Assembly: GCA_048886305.1 (NCBI GenBank)
Contig: JBHLKV010000001.1
Location: 13,039 to 77,038, forward strand
Source: Candidatus Hodarchaeota archaeon
GTDB lineage: Archaea > Asgardarchaeota > Lokiarchaeia > Sigyniarchaeales > SOKP01
Length of the DNA stretch: 64,000 nucleotides
Direction of reading: 5' to 3'
The notes beneath the pieces were generated by a model, which was not told the DNA's origin, ran no database searches, and saw only the letters and a list, made by a program, of their open reading frames with translations. The position numbers and the translations under genes are program-made. This document shows positions 24,030 to 64,000 of this stretch, one piece after another (the first letter of the stretch is position 1; the number at the start of each line of letters is the position of its first letter).

Positions 24030-27000
24030 TTATATTAATTTTTCATATTCCTTAGATTTATTCGATAATCTTTTAACTTCCTTTGTCATTTCAGTTACGC
24101 CTAATTTAAAGATTTCAGATGCTACTCTTGAAGCCATTCGAAACTTTTGTGCAGCTTCAGAGTAACGCCCTTCTTTAGCTGCTAATTTAGCTCCATTCTC
24201 TAATTCCTTTAGTTTTGCTTTATAATCTATTATTTTTGTCGTGCGGATAAGATCTTCGAGTTCTTCAAATTCTTTTTGTATTTCCCAATTTGTAGCAATC
24301 ATTAAAGCATTCTGGCAAATCGTAATAGCTTTATCGTAATCATTCTCTTTTCTCGCTAAAGCAGCATTCTTCTTTAGGTTTTTAATCTCCTTTTTCGCTG
24401 ATTTTAGATCTTCTATTTTTACTACTCCCACTTTCATGGGTGCAGATACAATTTCCTGGCTTTCTACTATACTGGCAAAGTAAGCTTCTCTTTCAGCAGG
24501 ACCCATTTGAGCTAGATCATTTACAAGTTTTTGTTTTTCTTCGGGGCTTAAGCTAACTAATCCCGCGACTTTTTGGCTAATAAGATTCAATTCTTGTTGA
24601 GAAATTGGCTGGGCTTCAATGGTGGAGATCTCTATTGGCATTAAGATTTTTTTATCTCTTAATTCCTTAATACCACTAAAAATTTCCGCTGTATCTTTCT
24701 TAGTTCTTTCTGTAGCTTCTTTCAAAAGAGTTGCTATAAAGAAGAAATCTCTTTCTGCCTCTTCGCAGCAACTATGAGCAACTTTTAATACATCTTTTGA
24801 ATGGGGTGTTTTAAGAGTTTTTGCCTCTGAAAATTCATATGTAATCTTATGAGGTAAAATTATTGAAGTATTGAAGACATCATCAATAATTACCCCTGAA
24901 TTTCTGAAAACATTTAATTGCCCTCTCCACCTAGGAAGTTCATTTTCATAAATTTTCTCAAAAGCTGCAATAAATTCAGTTAGATGTTTACGTAAAATAA
25001 TTGAAGCTTTCTTACTTAACACTAAGGCAACCCTACTATATTCGCCATCAGCTAATAAGAGCATCTTATCTCCATATGTTATTTCATTTAATGCTTTCTG
25101 AGCTACCATCTCTTTTCCAAATGAAGAGACCGCAGAAATGAAACCACTGATTAATTCAGGATCAATTGCCTCAGATCCAAAAGATTTAAAGAAAACACAT
25201 GTTCCTGTTCCCTTATACAAAACTAAAATGTGTTCTAGATTAATAGCGTCATCAAAAATAGTCCTAACTTCAGTTAAAGCCCTTTTCTTTTCACGTTTTT
25301 TAGGAACAACTAATCCTCGATAAGCAGCAATCGAACCAACCCCTACTGCTGCTGCGGCTCCAACAATTATGAAATAAGGTATTAAATCCTCAAAAGCGAA
25401 CGGAGCCGGACCTTCTGCTCTTTCGGTTAATGTTAGATTAAATGAAAATGATTGAATTTCATAATTAACCAATTCAATTGATATCGTAATTGTATAGTTA
25501 CCTTCTTCAGTAATAGATGATAAATCTATATTTCCTCTATAAAAAGTTGCAGCATACCTAATAAAGATGAGAGTTCCACTAGATGGTGTACCAGATGTTT
25601 TGTTGTATGTGACTGTTATTATCGCTGCTGAACCAGAATCTAAAACTAAATTATTACCATAATCAAGGTCAGTAATATTAAATTGAACATCAATATCACT
25701 TCCAAGAGTAGCGTTATAATAGTTATACAAACCTATTGGTAATAGCTCTATACCATCTACTTCAATAGTTTCTAGATTTGATTGAGAACTATTCCCTAAT
25801 AACCTAAATGTTACCGGACTTGTGTTAAAGTTGTATATTGGATATTTAGAAATGTTCAAAGTAATCGTATATTCTCCAGAATCTAATCCACTTGTACTTA
25901 CATTAAGAATATAATAATCCTCAGCTGGTACAGGTATTAATGTCCAATTATGATCTCCCCTTAACCATAAGGAACCGACATCATCATATACTTTAACATC
26001 ATCAGTTGTGAGATCAGGAATAGGTAAACCATCTAATGTGCTATTGAAATATAAATATATTGTTTGATTGAGCCCCGTTAATCTTTTAATTGTTGGAACA
26101 GAGGAAATAATTTCGATAACAGTATTTAACAATATCACTTCTATAGATAGAATAACTTTTTGAGGTTCTTTACCTAATTTTGATATAGTAAAATTACACA
26201 GATATGGATTTACTCTTGAAGGAACATTGTTTACCTCTATATTAACTGTATAGGTACCATTTCCATAAGTATCACTATAAAAAATAAATCCGGAATCTAA
26301 TTCTATATCTGAGAAAGAAGCTCCAATAATAGGATTATTACCGAAATCAGTATCTGTATAATTAAACGTGTATGTAACGTTTACACCATTAGTAGATTGA
26401 AAACTCTTTGTTATATCTTCAATAAAAGTATGATTCACTAAATTAAATATAAACTGAAGTGAATCATTGTTATAATATTGTAATAATGTTCTTATATCTA
26501 CGGTATTTGGACCATAGTTAGCAGAACTTGGATCTATTGTAATATTATAAAAACCAGAAGTACCATTATTAACAGATGTAGAATCCCATGTTCCACCATT
26601 AATACTATATTCAATAGTCCCATCAACAGGTATATTTTGACCTGTATCATTTATATAAACAGTTATATTGAAATCAGGAGATGAAGGATAATAATATTCA
26701 TTGTCTGGTGGTGATATATGAGACAAATCAGTTTCACCATAAATGGTAAGTAATTCTTCTCTAAATCCAGCAGCAGTTTCATTATTCCAAAAAACTTGTA
26801 CACGAAAAACACCATAACTAACGACTGTACTACTTATATCCCAATCAATAAAATTGATATCTGAATTAGCGCTAAGTGTGGTATTATCAGTTGTAAAATT
26901 TAAAAAATCATTAATCAATATTGGACTATAAATACTTAGATTTACTCCATTGGTTCCAGGAATAACATCTTCAAAAAATTCAGCTACAAATGAGACTGTA

Positions 27001-28421
27001 TCCGAATAATTTGCTTCAGTTATTGGATTTAATCCTTTATTCATACCAATTGATTGAAGTAGATTATCGGATTGTCCTGTAATATACCAATTGGTTCCAT
27101 TATCAGCATTAGATATTTTAAGATCTTTAAATCTGTTAATTATCGGACCTATCGTAATATCTGAAGTTTTATCGATAGATCCATTATATGCATTAAAATT
27201 TCTCCATGTGTCAGGTACAGTAAAATTTATATAAAAGTTGCTTAATCTTGAATCAAAATCATCAATCTCCTCAGTTGGGAGAGCCATCCAATTAACATCT
27301 GCAGCATTTTTAGTTAATGTAAAATTTGAAGCTGCTGTTATATCACTTTTTGTGTAATTTGCTTGTACTTCACTGATTTGGCAGGTAACATCCCACCATT
27401 CTGCTGAAATTTCAAAGTTTAAACTATTGGTAACTACTTCAAATGATGCATCTAAATCCCAAGTCCCCTGATTAGCAAAACTATTATAGTTATCTACAGC
27501 ACTACCATTGATCTTTAAACTTACTTGATTAGGCGTTGGAGTATTATTAAGAGGAAGTAAATGGAGGATAAGTGAAGGATCAATACCAGCCACAGGTTGC
27601 CATCCACCATCATCTATCCATACTTTTGAATCATCGCTTGAACCGTCATTTTCATCATGAAATTGTACATTAGCTAATGAAGAGGAGGTAGTTTGAGTCA
27701 TCCAGATATAAAATAAGTTATTTTCTGTTTGTGAGACATCCAATTGAATATCCAAATCTGTAAAATTATACCATATTCTATTTGTATCATTATATATTGT
27801 AACACTATTTTGTATTGTATCTAAATAGGTGTCTGGTCCATAATCGCTAAAAACACCATTCCATGATGCACTCCATAGCTCCAAGTTTATTGATCCATCA
27901 AAATCATCAAGTAAATCTGATTCTGAGAAGCACATAGTGAAATTATCTAAAATACCATCACCAGGTACCTGAAAAGAAACTGCATGGTCATAATTACGAA
28001 TTGAGGTTGATAAAGTTGTTCCTGTTTCAATTACAAGTGTTTTATTTGGTGCAACTATATCCATAACCTCGATGCTTATATTTTTCGCAAAAAAATTATT
28101 GTTACCTGGAGAAGCTATGTTAAATGTATTATTATTTGAATCTGAAGCATTCAAATTCCAGTTAAATGATTCATTAAAATAAGATTGATGTAATGTAACA
28201 TTAACATTTTCACCAGTATTGCTTAAATCATTTGTATAACCTGCAGCTTTAAGATTATCATCAAAAAAATCGAATTCATCATAATTAAATTTTGTCTCTT
28301 CCTCAATTGCTCTATTTAGTAAATTTGTTTGTGAAACATTCAAGCTTACAAACATTGTACCAAGAAATAAAAATAGAATGCTGATACTTTTTAGTTTTCT
28401 TTTGTTTTTCGATTTAAACAT
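24030..28421 (-). CDS. giant type-I surface glycoprotein-like protein: signal/anchor, ~1,000-aa beta-rich ectodomain, single TM, ~430-aa cytosolic tail (longin/roadblock-like module plus helical TPR/MIT-like end)
   Basis: N-terminal KSKNKRKLKSISILFLFLGTMFV signal. I count more than 40 N-x-S/T sequons by eye in the ectodomain, with recurring G.YT(I/V).I strands. The TM helix is IPYFIIVGAAAAVGVGSIAAY followed by KKREKKR (nt ~25320-25390). The ATG at 28421 is preferred over the TTG at 28430. Confidence 0.85.
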   Translation of the reverse strand: MFKSKNKRKLKSISILFLFLGTMFVSLNVSQTNLLNRAIEEETKFNYDEFDFFDDNLKAAGYTNDLSNTGENVNVTLHQSYFNESFNWNLNASDSNNNTFNIASPGNNNFFAKNISIEVMDIVAPNKTLVIETGTTLSTSIRNYDHAVSFQVPGDGILDNFTMCFSESDLLDDFDGSINLELWSASWNGVFSDYGPDTYLDTIQNSVTIYNDTNRIWYNFTDLDIQLDVSQTENNLFYIWMTQTTSSSLANVQFHDENDGSSDDSKVWIDDGGWQPVAGIDPSLILHLLPLNNTPTPNQVSLKINGSAVDNYNSFANQGTWDLDASFEVVTNSLNFEISAEWWDVTCQISEVQANYTKSDITAASNFTLTKNAADVNWMALPTEEIDDFDSRLSNFYINFTVPDTWRNFNAYNGSIDKTSDITIGPIINRFKDLKISNADNGTNWYITGQSDNLLQSIGMNKGLNPITEANYSDTVSFVAEFFEDVIPGTNGVNLSIYSPILINDFLNFTTDNTTLSANSDINFIDWDISSTVVSYGVFRVQVFWNNETAAGFREELLTIYGETDLSHISPPDNEYYYPSSPDFNITVYINDTGQNIPVDGTIEYSINGGTWDSTSVNNGTSGFYNITIDPSSANYGPNTVDIRTLLQYYNNDSLQFIFNLVNHTFIEDITKSFQSTNGVNVTYTFNYTDTDFGNNPIIGASFSDIELDSGFIFYSDTYGNGTYTVNIEVNNVPSRVNPYLCNFTISKLGKEPQKVILSIEVILLNTVIEIISSVPTIKRLTGLNQTIYLYFNSTLDGLPIPDLTTDDVKVYDDVGSLWLRGDHNWTLIPVPAEDYYILNVSTSGLDSGEYTITLNISKYPIYNFNTSPVTFRLLGNSSQSNLETIEVDGIELLPIGLYNYYNATLGSDIDVQFNITDLDYGNNLVLDSGSAAIITVTYNKTSGTPSSGTLIFIRYAATFYRGNIDLSSITEEGNYTITISIELVNYEIQSFSFNLTLTERAEGPAPFAFEDLIPYFIIVGAAAAVGVGSIAAYRGLVVPKKREKKRALTEVRTIFDDAINLEHILVLYKGTGTCVFFKSFGSEAIDPELISGFISAVSSFGKEMVAQKALNEITYGDKMLLLADGEYSRVALVLSKKASIILRKHLTEFIAAFEKIYENELPRWRGQLNVFRNSGVIIDDVFNTSIILPHKITYEFSEAKTLKTPHSKDVLKVAHSCCEEAERDFFFIATLLKEATERTKKDTAEIFSGIKELRDKKILMPIEISTIEAQPISQQELNLISQKVAGLVSLSPEEKQKLVNDLAQMGPAEREAYFASIVESQEIVSAPMKVGVVKIEDLKSAKKEIKNLKKNAALARKENDYDKAITICQNALMIATNWEIQKEFEELEDLIRTTKIIDYKAKLKELENGAKLAAKEGRYSEAAQKFRMASRVASEIFKLGVTEMTKEVKRLSNKSKEYEKLI

Positions 28422-28671
28422 TGTAATCAATTAATAATTTCTATTTGGATTTAAATACTATTAGTATATTATTTAAAATCTTTTATTTTAAGATTAAATA
28501 GTTTTTTTATTAATTATCTAATTAATCAAATCATAACAATTTCTTAATTTATACTTTTTCAAAACAAATCAGATCATTTCATCTTTAAAGAAGAAAATAG
28601 TAATTTATGAATAACATAAAAATCGAAATAATGTAAATTTTTTAAAGAATGATAAAGATTGAATTATTACA

Positions 28672-54364: not shown

Positions 54365-57097
54365 TTAGAGTAATTTTAAATCTACCAGTAATTCATGATA
54401 TTTTTTCATGGATTCATTGTCTTCAGAATTTTTTATGAATCTTTTTTGATAAAATATTATATTTGGATATTTAATTTCTAAATCATTAAATAATTTAATC
54501 CAGCCATAAAAAACTTTCATATGTTCATAAACTTCGATATCTTCCTCGAAAGCTTTAATTTCTTGTTTTTCTTTAACATCTTTTGGTAAACTCTTATATT
54601 TTTTAATGCTGTACCCTTGATCTCGTAGTAATTTTATATTTACTCTTCTAATAAAAGATTCTAACCCCTCTCTCCAAAATATATATTTTTCATTGATTCG
54701 ATCAATAGACTCTTCTACTGCTTTAATTTCTTTTGGGTAGATCGTTTCATCTTTTTTAGTTAAAATCTTTTTTATGTTTAGAAATTCTAAATCGAATTTT
54801 TGAATATAAGAATCTACCATCTTTGAAAATTCATGTAAATTTGTATTATAATCATTAGCAAATAATACTTCATCACTAGAAAATGTTAATGAACTTTCAT
54901 CAAAATTACCTCTTAATTTACGTTTTTTAACTAAATCATCAAAAATATCTCTTAATAATTTGATTTCTTCTTCGGATAAGTCCTTACCATAAAAAAGATC
55001 GTGAAAAGAAAAAAGAAAATTATTTTCTAGCATTAATTTCCGAATTCCTCTTTCAGTATAAAAAATTATTTCATCTTCATTATTATAAAATATCCCTTTT
55101 AATTTACCATCTTTAAGTAAATCGTTGATTAAATTTTCAACTAAATCTGACGTTATCTCAAAAGTTCCCAAAGAAATATAATCAGCAGATCTCGATCTAT
55201 CGATTAAAGTATATTTGATATCATTTTTAGCATCCTCAATTTTTAATGGATTAAAAATTAAAGTATCTCCTTTCTTTAAATAAGTTAATCCTAAATCATT
55301 TAAAAACTCGATAAACTTATCATTTTCCATCCCTGTCTTTTCAAGATATTCACTTATTTTTATTTGTTCTTTCTCTATGATTTCTTCCCCAATTAAACGA
55401 AGATTTTCATCAATCTTTGTTAATATATGATTTTCTTCTATATTCAACTCATTTGCTAATTCAAAAATTTGCACTTTTTTTTCCTGTTCTTCAGGAATTA
55501 AACTAATCTCATCAATCCGCTCTTTTAAATATTTTGAATAGTAGAAAATTTCCTTACTTTTATCCCAAATCCCACTTCTCAAATCAATATTATGCTCTAA
55601 GATATCCATTAGTAATGTTTTTTTAATCAAATATTTGTCTGATACCTTATTTATATTAAAAAATCCAACCAACTTTGAATTTTCAATTTCTTTTTTCAAT
55701 TTTAACAGACCTAAGTTAGTTAACCACTGCGTTCCCTTATGAAAGTTAGTTAAATATTCTTTTGGTAAATTTTGAATTAATTTGATAAACTCTTTATCTA
55801 ATAATCTTTCTCGATACGATTTTAAGTCAATAATAATATTTTTAGCTGCTTCTGAATTAATTTGGTCATTTATTTTTTTTAATGAATAATAGGCATTCTT
55901 GTTTTTTCCAAGTAACAATTGTTCTTTCAAAGATTTTGCTATGACTTGAATAAGATCATACATAAATTGAGGTGGTAGATAATTATAATTTTTTAAATTA
56001 ACCATTCCATTTAATCGAAAATTATGTATTAATTGCGATTTTAGATAATCATAAGGATAGAAATTACCTAAATTTGAATAAAATCCGTTTATAATTTTCA
56101 AGTTAAGTAGTGTTTTTATAAAAATTTTTAATTCTGAATCGGTTTCGATTATTTGAGAAAATTGTTTAAAGATTTTTTCATTAGATATTTTTCTATCTTC
56201 TTTAAAAAAGTTAAGAAGCTTTTGCTTTTCAATCTCATAAATACAAATTATATCATCCTTTGATTTAGTATAGAAATAAACTTTTTCATCTTTAAGTAAA
56301 GAATTTTTAAAAAAGTTCATAAAATCTTTCAAATTTATTTCCTTTTCCTTAGAAATGGCTGTAAAGTTGATTTTTTTCATTAAAAACTGATTATCCAACA
56401 AGTTAATTAATTCTTTAAGTTTTTGATTTTCAAGATCATATTCTTTCAGAAATGGGTAAAATTTTTTAATAAGCTTTAACAATTCAACAAAGATTTTAGA
56501 GTTTTTTTCATGAAAATGTGATTTTATTAATAATTTTGAAGCTAATCTAAACTTATAGAGTTGATCAAAATTTAATTCAACACAATGACTTAGTAATTTT
56601 AATAAAGAAATAACATTTTCATCGCTCTTTTCAACTAAAAGGCTCTCTATAAATAAGCTTTTATTTGAAATGACTATTTCTTTATCTCTTTTAACTAATT
56701 GTAATAAAAAATAATGAATATTATCTCTAATATCCTTAGATTCATCTAATAAAAATTTAATAAATTCAAGTGAGTATTTATTATAGTATTTACTCTCAGC
56801 CATAATAGCAAATCCAATTAAAATAATTGAATTTATTTTAAGTTTACTATTATCAGAGTGGAGAAACCTTCCAACATGTTCAATTAATCTTTCAGAAATT
56901 AATTCAAAGTTTTTCTCTGCCAAAATACTCAAGATATAAGTTATAGGTATAGCAAGCGACTCTTGATTGATTAATAAATCTTCTAATTCATCAATTAATT
57001 TTGATACTTTTGCTATCTTATTCTTCTTTAAATACTGATTTAATTTATCAACAATTAAAATGAGATTATTGTTATCAAATTCTTCCAGATTGAACAT
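54365..57097 (-). CDS. large (910 aa) alpha-solenoid protein with C-terminal tandem winged-helix-like modules; function unknown
   Basis: The frame is open across 2.7 kb of AT-rich DNA. The N-terminal ~230 aa are HEAT/ARM-like. C-terminal segments such as LINDLLKDGKLKGIFYNNEDEIIFY and IFDDLVKKRKLRGNFDESSLTFSS look like PCI/UFL1-style WH wings. There are no nucleotide-binding or metal motifs. The ATG at 57097 is preferred over the TTG at 57103. Confidence 0.7.
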   Translation of the reverse strand: MFNLEEFDNNNLILIVDKLNQYLKKNKIAKVSKLIDELEDLLINQESLAIPITYILSILAEKNFELISERLIEHVGRFLHSDNSKLKINSIILIGFAIMAESKYYNKYSLEFIKFLLDESKDIRDNIHYFLLQLVKRDKEIVISNKSLFIESLLVEKSDENVISLLKLLSHCVELNFDQLYKFRLASKLLIKSHFHEKNSKIFVELLKLIKKFYPFLKEYDLENQKLKELINLLDNQFLMKKINFTAISKEKEINLKDFMNFFKNSLLKDEKVYFYTKSKDDIICIYEIEKQKLLNFFKEDRKISNEKIFKQFSQIIETDSELKIFIKTLLNLKIINGFYSNLGNFYPYDYLKSQLIHNFRLNGMVNLKNYNYLPPQFMYDLIQVIAKSLKEQLLLGKNKNAYYSLKKINDQINSEAAKNIIIDLKSYRERLLDKEFIKLIQNLPKEYLTNFHKGTQWLTNLGLLKLKKEIENSKLVGFFNINKVSDKYLIKKTLLMDILEHNIDLRSGIWDKSKEIFYYSKYLKERIDEISLIPEEQEKKVQIFELANELNIEENHILTKIDENLRLIGEEIIEKEQIKISEYLEKTGMENDKFIEFLNDLGLTYLKKGDTLIFNPLKIEDAKNDIKYTLIDRSRSADYISLGTFEITSDLVENLINDLLKDGKLKGIFYNNEDEIIFYTERGIRKLMLENNFLFSFHDLFYGKDLSEEEIKLLRDIFDDLVKKRKLRGNFDESSLTFSSDEVLFANDYNTNLHEFSKMVDSYIQKFDLEFLNIKKILTKKDETIYPKEIKAVEESIDRINEKYIFWREGLESFIRRVNIKLLRDQGYSIKKYKSLPKDVKEKQEIKAFEEDIEVYEHMKVFYGWIKLFNDLEIKYPNIIFYQKRFIKNSEDNESMKKYHELLVDLKLL

Positions 57098-57116
57098 ATG
57101 CAAAAATCTTAAATGA

Positions 57117-57995: not shown

Positions 57996-58664
57996 TCATG
58001 AGTCTATCTCGTCGGGTTCAACACTAACATGAGATAACAGCCAATCGATTTGTTCTTCTTTTTTTTTGATATTAAGAACTGTTGGTAAATAAATAACTTC
58101 ATCTGCTCTTCCTGGCAATAAAGTCATTGAACCTGCTCTGAGTAAAAAATACTCAAAAACATCAGGAATTTCTTTTTTTAGACGTAGGCTTTTTACTGGA
58201 AATCTTTCAGCAGAGCTAAAAATACCAGATTTATGGTATATTTCGTTCCGTTCTAATTTCCAATAATCAAATCTTGCACTAAGCATAACGAATCCTAAAA
58301 TAAGTGCAAGGATTATTGTGGTAACAAGATAAAAGCCTTCAGTTAATCCTAGATTGAAATCTCCAAAATCTATATCCACAGCAAGATTGGGTAAAACAAA
58401 AAATGCTACGAGTAATAATCCAATGACTACTACCAGAATCAAGACAAAGAATTTAGTCGAAGAAAAGTCAAAAGCGGTTATGAATAGATTTGTGAAAAAT
58501 ACAATCATCCATACTGTTCCTAACCAACCGACAGGTTCGTCACTAAAAAGCTGAATTATCCACCAAAAAAATGAAACCACAAGTAACGGCCAAAAGAATA
58601 TAATTTTAGGATATGATCTTAGATAGATCTCAGTTGGGTATTTAGGTTTTTTTTTTTCAGACAT
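57996..58664 (-). CDS. membrane protein with C-terminal bacterial-PH (bPH_2/YdbS-like) domain
   Basis: Four TM helices, then YWKLERNEIYHKSGIFSSAERFPVKSL..IPDVFEY.. It is a paralogue of the next gene. Confidence 0.65.
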   Translation of the reverse strand: MSEKKKPKYPTEIYLRSYPKIIFFWPLLVVSFFWWIIQLFSDEPVGWLGTVWMIVFFTNLFITAFDFSSTKFFVLILVVVIGLLLVAFFVLPNLAVDIDFGDFNLGLTEGFYLVTTIILALILGFVMLSARFDYWKLERNEIYHKSGIFSSAERFPVKSLRLKKEIPDVFEYFLLRAGSMTLLPGRADEVIYLPTVLNIKKKEEQIDWLLSHVSVEPDEIDS

Positions 58665-58881: not shown

Positions 58882-59562
58882 TTAATCAACTACAACTTGG
58901 AGATGACTTAAAAGATCATCAATTTGCTTAGTTTTTTTCTTAACGTTCAAGACTGTATTAAGAATAACGATTTTATTTTTCCATATCAAACTAATAGTAC
59001 CTGCTTTTAACATCATATATTCAAATAAATCTGGGATTTCTTTCTTGATCCTTAAACCTCTAACTGGAAATCGCTCAGTTGATAAAGAAAACATGCCTTT
59101 CTTATGATAAACTTCATTTCTCTCAATTTTATAGTAATCAAATCTAGTAGTAATAAAAATTAGTCCTAAAATCAACCCTAAAATTATGGTCATTATCATG
59201 TAGAACTCTGCTGGAAGTCCAAGATTAAATTCCTCCCCAAGAATTCCTTCTTGTTCCAAAATAGGAATTAAACTAAAAAAGATAACTAACAAAACAGCGA
59301 TAACAGTAATAAGAATTAGAATTAAGACCCTATATGATGGAAAATCTAATACAGTTACACTAAAATTCGAAAAAAATATAATTACCCAAATACCACCTAG
59401 CCACGGATTTAATTCCTTTAGAAATGCTTGAATTATCCAAAATAGTATCGATATTACAAACAAAGGTAAGAAAAATATTCCTTTTGAAAAATTTCTTAAA
59501 ACTATTGTTTCCTTTTCCAATAAACTATTACTTTTATTGTTAGTTTCTTCCATAATAATCAT
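58882..59562 (-). CDS. membrane protein with C-terminal bacterial-PH (bPH_2/YdbS-like) domain, paralogue
   Basis: Same architecture, with YYKIERNEVYHKKGMFSLSTERFPVRGL..IPDLFEY. Confidence 0.65.
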   Translation of the reverse strand: MIIMEETNNKSNSLLEKETIVLRNFSKGIFFLPLFVISILFWIIQAFLKELNPWLGGIWVIIFFSNFSVTVLDFPSYRVLILILITVIAVLLVIFFSLIPILEQEGILGEEFNLGLPAEFYMIMTIILGLILGLIFITTRFDYYKIERNEVYHKKGMFSLSTERFPVRGLRIKKEIPDLFEYMMLKAGTISLIWKNKIVILNTVLNVKKKTKQIDDLLSHLQVVVD

Positions 59563-60513: not shown

Positions 60514-60894
60514 ATGTCTAAAGAACCCAAAATTGAAGATTTAAAATCTAAAATACGCTTTGGTATTAAAATCTGGTTAGAATTCGAAAATAAAAGTATA
60601 TTGGGTTCAGGGTGGGCGAATTTGCTTCAGAATCTCGAAAAAAATAAAGAGGGGTCATTGACTCAAGCAGCAAAAGAGTGTAATTACTCATATAAGTATG
60701 CTTGGAATATATTAAAGAGGATTGAGAAGAGAACAGGTATGAGCCCTGTTGATACTAGTAAAGGTGGGAGTGGAGGAGGTGGTTGGGTAAAATTAAATGC
60801 ATGGGGGCGATACCTCTTAAAGAGCTATAATGAATATCTAGAAGAAATTAGAAAAGCTGAGAAGAGGCTCGGTGAAATGATGAAGATTAATTAA
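60514..60894 (+). CDS. ModE-N-terminal-type (LysR-like) winged-HTH protein
   Basis: GSLTQAAKECNYSYKYAWNILKRIE....G.SPVDTSKGGSGGGGWVKLNAWGRYLL parallels the ModE N-domain (GSISAAAR..MSYRRAW..GGKGGGGA.LT). There is no Mop domain. Confidence 0.65.
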   Translation: MSKEPKIEDLKSKIRFGIKIWLEFENKSILGSGWANLLQNLEKNKEGSLTQAAKECNYSYKYAWNILKRIEKRTGMSPVDTSKGGSGGGGWVKLNAWGRYLLKSYNEYLEEIRKAEKRLGEMMKIN

Positions 60895-60964
60895 TAATTA
60901 CATTTTAATTTTTAAATTGATTATTTCTAACAAAGGATTAGAATTAAATTACTAATTTAACAGA

Positions 60965-61393
60965 ATGGTAGAAGATCAATTAAATAATTTCGGAGAAGTT
61001 AAAGTATCTGAGATTATGGTAAAAAATCCACTTTACACGACTCCTAATGAAAAAATCAGTACAACAGAACTTTTAATGTTAAGAAAAAATATTGGTGGTC
61101 TTCCTGTTGTAAAAAATTCTACGAAAAAACAACTAGTTGGAATTATTACACAAAGAGACATCCGATTAGCTAGATTTGCTATGAGTTTAGAATCTCCAAA
61201 TAAAACTGTTAAAGATTTAATGACTCCAGAACCATTTATCGTTAAAAAGGATACCACTATAAAGCAGGCTTTAACGCTAATGTTTGATAAAAACATTGAA
61301 CGTTTACCAGTAGTAAATGAGAATAATGAACTAATTGGATTATTATTACAAACCAATATTCTCAAATCATTATTAGAACATCTAAAACTATAG
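60965..61393 (+). CDS. CBS-domain pair protein
   Basis: Two CBS repeats: GGLPVV..LVGIITQRDI and ERLPVVNENNELIGLL. Confidence 0.85.
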   Translation: MVEDQLNNFGEVKVSEIMVKNPLYTTPNEKISTTELLMLRKNIGGLPVVKNSTKKQLVGIITQRDIRLARFAMSLESPNKTVKDLMTPEPFIVKKDTTIKQALTLMFDKNIERLPVVNENNELIGLLLQTNILKSLLEHLKL

Positions 61394-61553: not shown

Positions 61554-63083
61554 ATGGCAATACCTCTACCCGGAACACCAATTATAATTGACATTGGCTC
61601 AGCATATGTAAAAATAGGTTTTGCTGGAGAACCTAGTCCTAGATTTGTATTTCCATGCATTACTGGAACTGAAAAATATAAAGCAGTATTAGTCGACGTT
61701 GGAGCGCGCAATATATATGTTGGAAATGATGCAGAACGTATGCGGGGCGTTTTAAAAATAAAATATCCAATCCAGAGAGGGACAATTATGGATTGGGATA
61801 GTTACTATGAGATTTTAAACTATATCTTTTATACATTATTAAGAATTGACAATCTTTATGAATATCCTGTTTTTTATACTGAAGCGCCGTTTGTACAAAA
61901 AGAAACTAAAGAATATATTGCACGAGTTCTTTTTGAAACGCATAGAGTTAAAAGTTTAATGATGATGCCAACACCTTTATTATCTATATTTAGTGTTGGT
62001 CTCACATCAGGTTTGGTTATAGAAAGTGGTGATGGATTAACTTGGGTTGTTCCAGTTATTAATGGACAAATTGTTCATCAAGCAGTCCAACAAATAAAGC
62101 TTGCGGGTGTTGATGTTAATCAAAACCTAAAAAATCTATTAATGAGAGAAGGAATAAGTATAGCATCTTCAGCTGTTGATGAGATAATTCGAGAAATTAA
62201 GGAAAAAAATTGTCATTTTATTTTAGATCCTCAAAAATCTCCTACTGCAGGGGATAAATTAAGTTATAATATGCCTGATGGATCGAGTATAAAAATCCCT
62301 AGTCATATCCTCTATGAAGCTCCTGAAGTTTTATTTAACCCTGGTATGTTAGGATATGGGAATGTTGCAAGTATTCAAGACGCAGTTATTTCTTGTTTGA
62401 AAATTATGGATAAACAATATTGGAGTGAACTTTTATCTCATATAGTATTTTCGGGAGGGAATCTTTCATATAGTGGTTTTCAAGAAAGATTTGAATCAGA
62501 ATTAGATAATCTACTTCCTCAATTGGGACGTATTCCTAAACCAGTTACTCCAATGTCCGAAGTGAAAAGTGAATTAATAAAATTACAAGCAATGGAAATA
62601 AAAAAGAAAAGAGAAGATACATGTCCTCAATGCGGAGCTTACGTGGATTTAAGTACTGGAATAGAATATTGTCCCTCTTGCAATGCTCGTATGGTTGTAC
62701 CTGAAATAAAAATTGGTCCCGAACCAGAGAAAGATAAAAAAATGGAAGAAGGAGTTACAGTTAGATGTCCAAAATGTAAAAAAGAAATCACGGATCCTTC
62801 TTCGGTTTTCTGTCCTTATTGTGGAAGAGCCATCGAGGAATTAGAGAAAGTCGGTATTCCTGAAAAAGTTAGTAAAAAAACTGCTGCTAAAGAATTTTCT
62901 GAATTTTTTGAATCTGCAAATAAGCTTCTTAGATTTTTTGTTCCAGATAATCTTCATTATGCTATTTTCAATGGAGCAGCAATATTAGGTAGTCTCCCTA
63001 GTTTTTTACAACTTTTCATTACTCATGAACAATTCCAATCAGATAGAGCTTTATTATATCGAGATATCAGTGAAATCCTTTAA
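61554..63083 (+). CDS. actin-family (actin/ARP-like) protein with an inserted double zinc ribbon
   Basis: Phosphate-1 IIIDIGSAYVKIGFAGEPSPRFVFP, phosphate-2 LVIESGDGLTWVVPVINGQ and adenosine motif HIVFSGGNLSYSGFQERFESEL. The C-terminal YAIFNGAAILGSL parallels actin YSVWIGGSILASL. The insert carries CPQCG-x12-CPSC and CPKC-x13-CPYCG (nt 62622-62822). Confidence 0.9.
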   Translation: MAIPLPGTPIIIDIGSAYVKIGFAGEPSPRFVFPCITGTEKYKAVLVDVGARNIYVGNDAERMRGVLKIKYPIQRGTIMDWDSYYEILNYIFYTLLRIDNLYEYPVFYTEAPFVQKETKEYIARVLFETHRVKSLMMMPTPLLSIFSVGLTSGLVIESGDGLTWVVPVINGQIVHQAVQQIKLAGVDVNQNLKNLLMREGISIASSAVDEIIREIKEKNCHFILDPQKSPTAGDKLSYNMPDGSSIKIPSHILYEAPEVLFNPGMLGYGNVASIQDAVISCLKIMDKQYWSELLSHIVFSGGNLSYSGFQERFESELDNLLPQLGRIPKPVTPMSEVKSELIKLQAMEIKKKREDTCPQCGAYVDLSTGIEYCPSCNARMVVPEIKIGPEPEKDKKMEEGVTVRCPKCKKEITDPSSVFCPYCGRAIEELEKVGIPEKVSKKTAAKEFSEFFESANKLLRFFVPDNLHYAIFNGAAILGSLPSFLQLFITHEQFQSDRALLYRDISEIL

Positions 63084-63186: not shown

Positions 63187-63660
63187 TTGAATATTAAACC
63201 TTTTGAAAACGTTAAAGATCAGATTGGATATTGTGGAATTTGGTGTGGCAGTTGTGTAGTGGGGAATGGAATTTTAAGGGAATTAACTAAAAGATATGAG
63301 GAAATCATTAAAAATTATGGTTTGGAAAATTGGGCTCCAAAAGGCTTTAATTTCAATGAATTTTTGGAGGGAATTGATTTGATAAGATCTATACCTTTAT
63401 GTCAAGGGTGCTTAGAGGGTGGAGGAAGGTCAGATTGTGAAATTAGAGGTTGTGCGGTGAATAAAAAATTAAATGATTGTAGTGAATGTAATCAATCTGC
63501 CACGTGTGAGAATTCTGAAATACTTAATTATATGAGGTCAGGTGCTCATGATGCAGGTCTTTTTATTAAAAATGAGAACGTGGATCGTCAAAACCTCATG
63601 AAAAAGTGGATTATTGAACTAAAAGGGAAATGGCCTTATTATATTTTGTTCTTACCGTAA
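63187..63660 (+). CDS. Cys-rich DUF3795-like protein
   Basis: CGIWCGSC...CQGC....CEIRGC......CSEC....C pattern. The TTG start is preceded by GAGGAT ~8 nt upstream. Confidence 0.65.
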   Translation: MNIKPFENVKDQIGYCGIWCGSCVVGNGILRELTKRYEEIIKNYGLENWAPKGFNFNEFLEGIDLIRSIPLCQGCLEGGGRSDCEIRGCAVNKKLNDCSECNQSATCENSEILNYMRSGAHDAGLFIKNENVDRQNLMKKWIIELKGKWPYYILFLP

Positions 63661-63855
63661 AAGAGTTATTTTTATTCTTCTATTTAAAATTTTTTTCATT
63701 TATGTCTTAATGATTAGGAGAAAAGGAAATTTACAATATTCTTTTATATTGAAATTTCAATACAAATTCAATTAAATATAGTTAATTTTTAATTCCAAGT
63801 TAAATTTTAGAAATTAAAATTTAGTAATACAGTATCATATTAAGGTTTTCTATAA

Positions 63856-64000
63856 GTGAAGAGTAAATATCTGAACCTAATTGTTATTGTTTTAGTGCTT
63901 TTATTTTTATTAAATGCGATTCCTGCAGTTTTAGGTAAATCCCGTAAAAGTTACTTAATCGATTTTATATATAGTAATGAAATTGAAGGTTTTGGATTTT
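63856..64000 (+). CDS. possible secreted/membrane protein, N-terminal fragment (runs off the window)
   Basis: The GTG start gives VKSKYLNLIVIVLVLLFLLNAIPAVLGKS.., a signal-peptide-like sequence. The frame is open to the window end, but only 48 codons are visible. Confidence 0.3.
   Translation, partial: MKSKYLNLIVIVLVLLFLLNAIPAVLGKSRKSYLIDFIYSNEIEGFGF

Follow-up and report, generated by a model that had tools for sequence, protein, structure and literature searches.

Lokiactin has a reported identity of about 58% to rabbit actin (PMC12050087) and forms filaments resembling F-actin (PMC9834061). In Ca. Lokiarchaeum ossiferum three homologues other than lokiactin have been described, which cluster with actin-related proteins (ARPs) and not with lokiactin and are expressed in culture below the level of lokiactin; the passages on actin homologues mention neither a zinc-ribbon insert nor a gene pairing (PMC9834061). 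Full-text literature searches likewise found no description of a zinc-ribbon Asgard ARP or of a gene pair formed by an ARP and a partner. Here we describe an open reading frame (ORF) located at 61554..63083 on the forward strand of a 64,000-nucleotide stretch of DNA (the window) from Candidatus Hodarchaeota archaeon (contig JBHLKV010000001.1, positions 13,039 to 77,038). The ORF encodes an actin-family protein, an ARP in the broad sense, whose actin fold is interrupted by an insert with two predicted zinc ribbons. A previous inspection of the DNA by a model that had no access to databases (the sequence-only reading) had suggested an ARP-like protein that tethers an actin fold to a ligand such as DNA or RNA, a membrane protein tail or another cytoskeletal factor.

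Actin core and insert

The Pfam Actin profile (PF00022) matched amino acids (aa) 9-323 of the ARP with an E-value of 3.5e-68 (230.5 bits, cut-off 27), and alignment to solved structures matched a second stretch, aa 458-497, to actin 353-392. Because two separate stretches match actin, the chain must leave the actin fold after helix alphaK and re-enter it at strand beta15. The best matches among solved structures were actins: 'HC1 actin' (9wc4) with an E-value of 1.8e-71, and yeast and muscle actins with values of about 1e-67. The phosphate-1 (DIGSAYVKIGFAG), phosphate-2 (VIESGDG) and adenosine (SGGNLSYSGF) motifs were all found, with DIGSAYVK, VIESGDG and SGGNLSY aligning to actin 11-18, 152-158 and 300-306, respectively. 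Identity to rabbit actin is 35%, and outside the insert the alignment of the core to actin 6-327 contains only two small gaps. The different parts of the gene are listed here, with positions counted from the first letter of the window.

61554..63083, + strand: zinc-ribbon ARP gene, 509 aa plus stop codon (ORF with a Pfam Actin match; orthologues 60-93% identical in at least 80 species genomes)
61554..62522, + strand: N-terminal part of the actin core, aa 1-323, comprising subdomains 1, 2, 4 and most of 3, up to helix alphaK
62523..62612, + strand: first part of the insert, aa 324-353, with the conserved LG-IPKP exit followed by a Lys-rich linker/helix
62613..62705, + strand: predicted zinc ribbon 1, aa 354-384 (C357, C360, C373, C376)
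62706..62759, + strand: variable Lys-rich linker, aa 385-402
62760..62834, + strand: predicted zinc ribbon 2, aa 403-427 (C405, C408, C420, C423)
62835..62924, + strand: variable linker, aa 428-444, and conserved acidic 'EF' helix, aa 445-457, leading back into the fold
62925..63080, + strand: C-terminal part of the actin core, aa 458-509, with strand beta15 and the C-terminal helices

The sequence-only reading had recognized the three ATPase signatures and the C-terminal strand and helix of the actin fold, and this is confirmed by the Pfam match, the motif alignment and the match of aa 458-497. Its description of the protein as ARP-like is backed by the profile, by the solved-structure matches and by the predicted fold (see below), and its impression that the protein is more divergent than a canonical Asgard actin agrees with the 35% identity to rabbit actin, compared with the 58% reported for lokiactin. 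It had also named Hsp70, FtsA, MreB and sugar kinases as alternatives, which fail: the profile search that it proposed placed the protein in the actin family, the MamK and crenactin models scored 21.4 (cut-off 400) and 19.3 (cut-off 630), and no match to Hsp70, FtsA or sugar kinases was obtained in profile scans. Identity with lokiactin or another bona fide actin was rejected as well, on the basis of the 35% identity, the 130-aa insert, the separate clade and the replacement of Q137 and H161 (see below). The protein has the attributes of an ARP in the broad sense, namely an actin fold, clear divergence, a loop insertion and the status of a paralogue beside the canonical actin of the lineage.

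The insert comprises aa 324-457 (nucleotides (nt) 62523-62924), about 130 aa net. Its eight cysteines, encoded by nt 62622-62822, are arranged as CPQC-x12-CPSC (C357/C360/C373/C376) and CPKC-x11-CPYC (C405/C408/C420/C423). Zinc-ribbon models of Pfam scored above their cut-offs on aa 357-426: Zn_ribbon_3 (PF13248; E=1e-9, 37.9 versus 27 bits, at aa 402-424), DZR (PF12773; E=2.9e-7, 31.0 versus 27.3) and DUF7575 (E=4.2e-8, 32.8 versus 28.5). The insert carries two predicted C4 zinc ribbons with two CxxC knuckles each. The sequence-only reading had located both ribbons at exactly these nucleotides and had given the x12 spacing of the first correctly; its estimates of about 110 aa for the insert and of x13 for the second ribbon have to be replaced by the values above.

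All eight cysteines were invariant in 67 aligned orthologues, well beyond what chance would produce. Conservation, expressed as the frequency of the most common residue, was 0.83 in the core, 0.78 in ribbon 1 and 0.70 in ribbon 2, and 0.38 and 0.49 in the two linkers; the linker with the value of 0.38 (aa 385-402) is 13-18 aa long. The LG-IPKP exit motif and the near-invariant pair E447-F448 bracket the insert. The Lys-rich segments on the two sides of ribbon 1 have mean net charges of +5 (aa 324-353) and +2, ribbon 1 itself has a mean charge of -3, ribbon 2 is nearly neutral, and the ARP taken as a whole is acidic. When the two ribbons were compared by hhalign, they proved to be homologous (probability 96%, E=3.9e-9), and the two-ribbon state can therefore be attributed to tandem duplication. 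A homology search with the insert only returned two fragments of the same family and no donor protein.

Family, clade and predicted structure

More than 120 protein clusters with 63-93% identity and a query coverage of 100% or nearly so were found in a search of about 5.8 billion proteins. Their length is 502-510 aa in nearly all cases, and each of them has PF00022 together with zinc-ribbon Pfam domains. When one genome was scanned for every species, relatives were detected in 117 species. The best 80 of these relatives were nearly all full-length with at least 60% identity, and almost all of them carried the label Promethearchaeota or Promethearchaeia, by which NCBI denotes the Loki lineage; neither Ca. 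L. ossiferum nor P. syntrophicum was among these 80 loci.

Three independent assemblies are collinear over the insert DNA and differ mostly by synonymous changes, the G+C content is even across the ARP gene, and no intein or transposase signature was detected in the ARP by the Pfam scan. These observations, taken together with the invariant cysteines and with full-length orthologues in more than 100 independent assemblies, refute the explanation that the insert arose by chimeric assembly or is a functionless mobile or selfish (intein-like) insertion; the only thing speaking for it is the unusual architecture, and its probability is close to nil. The survey of orthologues that the sequence-only reading had called for shows that the insert is conserved, and the mis-join or the insert-free orthologues that it had considered as a possible outcome were not encountered.

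Some of the metagenome-assembled genomes containing orthologues bear the names Hod-, Hermod-, Odin- or Thorarchaeota, and a single contig (L072) is labelled 'Nanopelagicaceae bacterium'. In these loci (L012, L023, L026, L027, L034, L035, L046, L056, L063, L071, L072, L077, L083 and L086) the ARP is 60-73% identical to the window protein and has the same downstream partner, and they are interspersed with Loki-labelled genomes. Their taxon labels are likely to reflect mislabelling or mis-binning.

When 1.84 billion representatives were searched exhaustively with HMMER, a ribbon-bearing insert at the same site was present in every relative above about 40% identity. These insert-bearing close relatives include P0123-P0129, and ordinary actins came next at 35-36% identity. 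A profile search added more than 60 clusters of 480-630 aa, some of them named from Sigynarchaeota. In this wider clade (Loki, Sigyn) the insert contains either two ribbons or one, corresponding to ribbon 1, followed by tails of very different length, which in other subfamilies are long, acidic or of mixed Lys/Glu composition. Ribbon 1 is present in every member, ribbon 2 is missing in the single-ribbon subfamilies, no insert-free member was found, and the A-x-EF motif preceding the re-entry into the fold is kept across the wider clade.

Phylogeny was studied by a distance-based neighbour-joining tree built from 362 insert-free core columns with 100 bootstraps, in which Arp4-10 and crenactin were left out. 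The zinc-ribbon clade was monophyletic in 100 of the 100 bootstraps, and its nearest sampled relatives were archaeal actin homologues without an insert, in which Q137 and H161 are retained. Arp1, Arp2 or Arp3 was joined to it in none, so that orthology with these eukaryotic proteins was rejected despite the insertion site shared with Arp2 and Arp3. These results show that the ARP belongs to a conserved, Asgard-specific clade defined by a ribbon insert in the alphaK/beta15 loop.

The family is already present in public data but is not recognized there. Its members bear the names 'zinc ribbon domain-containing protein', 'rod shape-determining protein' and 'centractin', which are uninformative or wrong. 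The name 'rod shape-determining protein' (MreB) is given by NCBI to the zinc-ribbon ARPs P0290, P0304, P0317, P0318, P0320 and P0321, most of which have a single ribbon. It derives from a weak match to PF06723 and is a misannotation, because the match to the actin profile is far stronger.

An AlphaFold model of the ARP, calculated from a diverse alignment of 121 sequences, had a mean predicted local distance difference test score (pLDDT) of 86.2 and a predicted template-modelling score of 0.76; an earlier model based on 67 close orthologues (pLDDT 65.5) was discarded. The pLDDT was mostly above 90 in the core, 87-92 in ribbon 1, about 85 in ribbon 2 and below 50 in the linkers 387-399 and 431-443. 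Helices were predicted at 334-342 (with low confidence) and at 446-455. In a Foldseek search the top 50 hits were all actin, with target-normalised template-modelling scores of 0.87-0.92, and the fold is thus predicted to be undisturbed by the insert. The sequence-only reading had asked whether the insert spares the fold; the model, with a confidently predicted core and with ribbons on flexible linkers, supports this.

The sequences of Arp1, Arp2 and Arp3 used for comparison were confirmed to be identical to the PDB chains (1k8k for Arp2 and Arp3). In the alignment Arp2 and Arp3 have inserts of about 11 and 19 aa at the identical alphaK/beta15 loop of subdomain 3, and no insert was found at this loop in actin, Arp1, the insert-free actin homologue P0335 and a korarchaeal actin. 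Since the inserts of Arp2 and Arp3 share the loop, the site can be regarded as a known hot spot for ARP diversification.

Alignment to actin also showed three replacements: Q137 by T140, H161 by W164 and D154 by E157. Q137 and H161 are catalytic residues, with which actin hydrolyses ATP. T140 is near-invariant and W164 is invariant in the family. Q137 is kept in actin, in Arp1-3 and in the other archaeal actins aligned, and H161 is kept in all of these except P0335. The set of nucleotide-contacting residues is 57% identical to actin, compared with 34% overall. From these residues we infer that the ARP binds ATP and that hydrolysis is altered or lost.

For comparing the two ends of the molecule, pointed-face and barbed-face sets, comprising 34 and 45 residues, were compiled from published Holmes-type contact lists. 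In three members of the clade identity to actin was 0.35-0.44 for the pointed and 0.20-0.29 for the barbed face. The order was reversed in Arp1, Arp3 and P0335, where the barbed face is more actin-like, and in Arp2 the two faces were about equal, with the barbed face marginally higher. In the window ARP the identity of contact residues was 0.22 for lateral and 0.27 for barbed-face contacts, against an average of 0.34. These values give weak support to the idea that the ARP could dock on the barbed face of actin without offering a canonical barbed face itself.

The same features have to be considered for another explanation, in which the protein is a self-polymerising actin paralogue that forms its own filaments, with the zinc ribbons on the outside bundling the filaments or recruiting other factors. 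The core has the length of actin with almost no insertions or deletions, the D-loop and the hydrophobic plug are as long as in actin, the nucleotide-contact set is conserved above average, and the long flexible linkers could swing the ribbons clear of a longitudinal contact. Polymerisation would, however, have to cope with the loss of Q137 and H161 and with lateral and barbed-face contacts conserved below average. Moreover, the insert replaces the actin loop 322-325, which in the Holmes filament model makes one of three longitudinal contacts. Weighing these points, we consider a self-polymerising paralogue rather unlikely.

Partner gene and proposed role

In eight loci from subfamilies with about 40-72% identity the gene directly downstream of the ARP on the same strand encodes a PF00432 protein of 365-386 aa, which in one locus (L091) is split into two ORFs; other neighbours vary between subfamilies. 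When a hidden Markov model of the neighbour was used, it was found directly downstream of the ARP, on the same strand, in 90 of 91 loci (ARPs 39-93% identical), the exception being truncated. In the reverse test, which started from the neighbour in metagenome contigs, the ARP lay 131-194 nt upstream in 29 of the 30 informative loci. The profile for this test was made from a four-sequence alignment, which reaches close relatives only; an eight-sequence version was too divergent. The window contains the beginning of the partner gene and three further features around the ARP gene:

63856..64000, + strand, running off the window: start of the partner gene (signal peptide), translation VKSKYLNLIVIVLVLLFLLNAIPAVLGKSRKSYLIDF..., matching the neighbour of L007 (L007:4721-5833)
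63775..63850, + strand: conserved AT-rich element of about 70 nt just upstream of the partner gene
63187..63660, + strand: gene for a Cys-rich DUF3795 protein of 157 aa (Pfam DUF3795, 2e-9), between the ARP and its usual partner
60514..61393, + strand: upstream genes for a helix-turn-helix (HTH) protein (126 aa) and a CBS-pair protein (142 aa), syntenic within the main family only

The orthologous neighbours match PF00432 (prenyltransferase alpha/alpha toroid) with E-values of 1e-15 to 1e-20 and only weakly resemble the beta subunit of farnesyltransferase (E about 1e-3). They have an N-terminal signal peptide, about six N-x-S/T sequons and a C-terminal transmembrane helix preceded by a VEFNY motif. 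After the helix follows a tail of exactly five residues in most of them, [RK][RK][RKT][RK][ILV]-COOH (e.g. RKRRI), and the last residue was I, L or V in 79 of 79 distinct proteins. The partner is predicted to be a secreted, single-pass, membrane-anchored and probably glycosylated surface protein with an alpha/alpha-toroid fold, and the predicted topology places its basic five-residue tail in the cytoplasm.

The C-terminus of the neighbour (VEFNY, transmembrane helix and RKRRI-COOH) resembles a sorting signal of the sortase or archaeosortase type. No C-terminal sorting-signal model of NCBIfam matched the neighbour, and this C-terminus could be an undescribed sorting signal of Asgard archaea.

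Comparison of 77 distinct intergenic sequences gave the consensus aTATaGTTAATTTTTAATTTCAAG.TAaATTTAAAAAATTAAAaTTTA...AGGTtTT for the AT-rich element, which contains an imperfect palindrome. The element is kept even though identity between the flanking proteins is only 45-93%, and it occupies the same place in L001, L005, L008-L086 and other loci; it is not present in the divergent subfamilies L087-L091. Its 21-mer occurs once in the 64-kb window, at 63779. An RNA element was rejected, as neither a signal of RNA structure (z=0.39) nor an Rfam match was detected, and the conserved sequence is probably the promoter or operator of the partner gene.

The DUF3795 gene is missing at this place in L007, the closest relative checked (ARP 93% identical), and in almost all other loci. 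Because L007 lacks it, the gene can be regarded as a recent local insertion, and it is probably not part of the system formed by the ARP and its partner. The HTH and CBS-pair genes were not found upstream of the ARP in the divergent subfamilies examined.

Taking these data together, we tentatively favour the reading that the protein is a non-treadmilling ARP with a zinc-ribbon module serving as adaptor, the most likely client being the envelope protein encoded beside it, and that it couples this protein to lokiactin. The ARP would bind ATP without acting as a treadmilling polymer, and its relatively actin-like pointed face (D-loop and subdomain 4) would dock on lokiactin. The ribbon module, held by long flexible linkers on the remodelled barbed side of subdomain 3, would act as a protein-binding adaptor: the acidic ribbon 1 would contact the polybasic tail of the partner, with the Lys-rich linkers near the anionic membrane. 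In this way the pair would couple the actin cytoskeleton to a component of the cell surface. Among the ligands envisaged by the sequence-only reading the membrane protein tail is the only one to gain support, of a circumstantial kind, from the near-obligate adjacency and the conserved RKRRI-COOH tail.

A nucleic-acid ligand gains little, because ribbon 1 is acidic and none of the conserved neighbours is related to DNA or RNA. In this explanation the protein would be a nucleic-acid-associated ARP comparable to nuclear Arp4, Arp5 or Arp8, whose ribbons attach to DNA or RNA or else dock with the ribosome or with RNA polymerase. The linkers are Lys-rich, and the ribbons are marginally similar to eL43, RNA polymerase subunit P, NOB1 and YacG (E 0.007-0.5); the match of ribbon 1 to eL43 (E=0.007), obtained with solved structures, was treated as generic. 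Set against this are the charges of the ribbons (-3 and about neutral) within an acidic protein and the lack of any replication, transcription or translation gene as a conserved neighbour across subfamilies, the sole conserved partner being an extracellular membrane protein. We regard a role at nucleic acids as distinctly unlikely.

The conserved membrane protein next door and the Lys-rich segments beside ribbon 1 (+5 and +2) could also be explained if the insert were a direct membrane-targeting module, in which polybasic linkers and ribbons bind to anionic lipids and the adjacency to the surface protein reflects only co-regulation. MreB and FtsA offer an analogy, since they have membrane-binding loops or helices. 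However, the insert showed no conserved membrane-insertion loop of hydrophobic or amphipathic character, and the long, acidic or mixed Lys/Glu tails of other subfamilies fit poorly with lipid binding, which makes this explanation very unlikely.

Several points weigh against an adaptor between lokiactin and the envelope protein. The difference between the two faces is not significant for the window ARP alone and was calculated from small residue sets taken from published contact lists. Arp2 and Arp3 accept actin at their barbed ends in the Arp2/3 branch junction, and because they tolerate inserts in the same loop, the insert alone does not prove that the barbed face is blocked. Co-transcription of the pair is not established, since the neighbour has its own conserved upstream element. 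Furthermore, the layout of VEFNY, transmembrane helix and basic tail resembles a cleavable sorting signal, in which case the tail would not persist, and the basic tail may reflect nothing but the positive-inside rule.

The proposed coupling can be extended to a stronger and more speculative form, which we think improbable as it stands. In this form the ARP and the alpha/alpha-toroid glycoprotein would constitute a two-component transmembrane link between lokiactin and the cell surface, with the pointed face of the ARP bound to a barbed end or subunit of lokiactin and the acidic ribbon gripping RKRRI-COOH. If true, this would be a prokaryotic counterpart, built from an ARP, of the linkers that connect the cell cortex to adhesion sites in eukaryotes, and a possible organiser of the surface structures or protrusions seen in Lokiarchaeia.

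Genes of the endosomal sorting machinery ESCRT, either Vps4 with ESCRT-II or two Snf7 genes, lie 2-5 kb upstream of the ARP in some divergent subfamilies (L087:2024-4248, L091:1286-3487, L088:1581-2937). A link to ESCRT was not adopted, as no such genes are near the ARP in the main family or in the window, and the proximity may be coincidental. Elsewhere in the window two adjacent paralogous genes on the reverse strand (57996-58664 and 58882-59562) encode membrane proteins of about 225 aa with the C-terminal motif RFPV..LR.KKEIPD.FEY and without a Pfam match; one copy of the pair is kept in the synteny block of related genomes. Two long reverse-strand ORFs, 24030-28430 (1466 aa) and 54365-57103 (912 aa), had no Pfam match at the thresholds used; the latter is syntenic in related genomes, where it is 886-911 aa long.

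Comparison with known systems

In 117 species-level genomes this ARP clade combines a predicted metal-binding adaptor inside an actin fold with genetic locking to an envelope protein, and the pair is a concrete candidate for a connection of the archaeal actin cytoskeleton to the membrane or the cell surface. With lokiactin the ARP shares the fold, the nucleotide-binding motifs, the host lineage and nearly the same core length. It differs from lokiactin in its 35% identity to rabbit actin, in the absence of Q137 and H161, in the zinc-ribbon insert of 130 aa and in forming a separate clade.

The INO80 subunits Arp5 and Arp8 use the actin fold as a scaffold on which a large loop insertion provides a ligand-binding surface. 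Their likeness to the zinc-ribbon ARP is confined to this scaffold principle; the insertion sites and the content of the insertions are different, they are not known to carry zinc ribbons, and nothing in the present data points to chromatin. The PF12773 and PF13248 families resemble the insert in having two tandem CPxC...CPxCG ribbons. In those families, however, the ribbons usually form separate or terminal modules of unknown function, whereas here they are nested in a loop of the actin fold.

The comparison with Arp2 and Arp3 concerns proteins that are likewise actin-related and carry an insertion at the same alphaK/beta15 loop. Their inserts are short (about 11 and 19 aa) and contain no metal site, they keep Q137 and H161, and their identity to the zinc-ribbon ARP is 28% and 23%, respectively. 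In Arp3, and marginally in Arp2, the barbed face is more actin-like than the pointed face, and in the zinc-ribbon ARP this order is reversed. Diversification of ARPs by domain insertion at the loop used in Arp2 and Arp3 has thus taken place outside eukaryotes as well.

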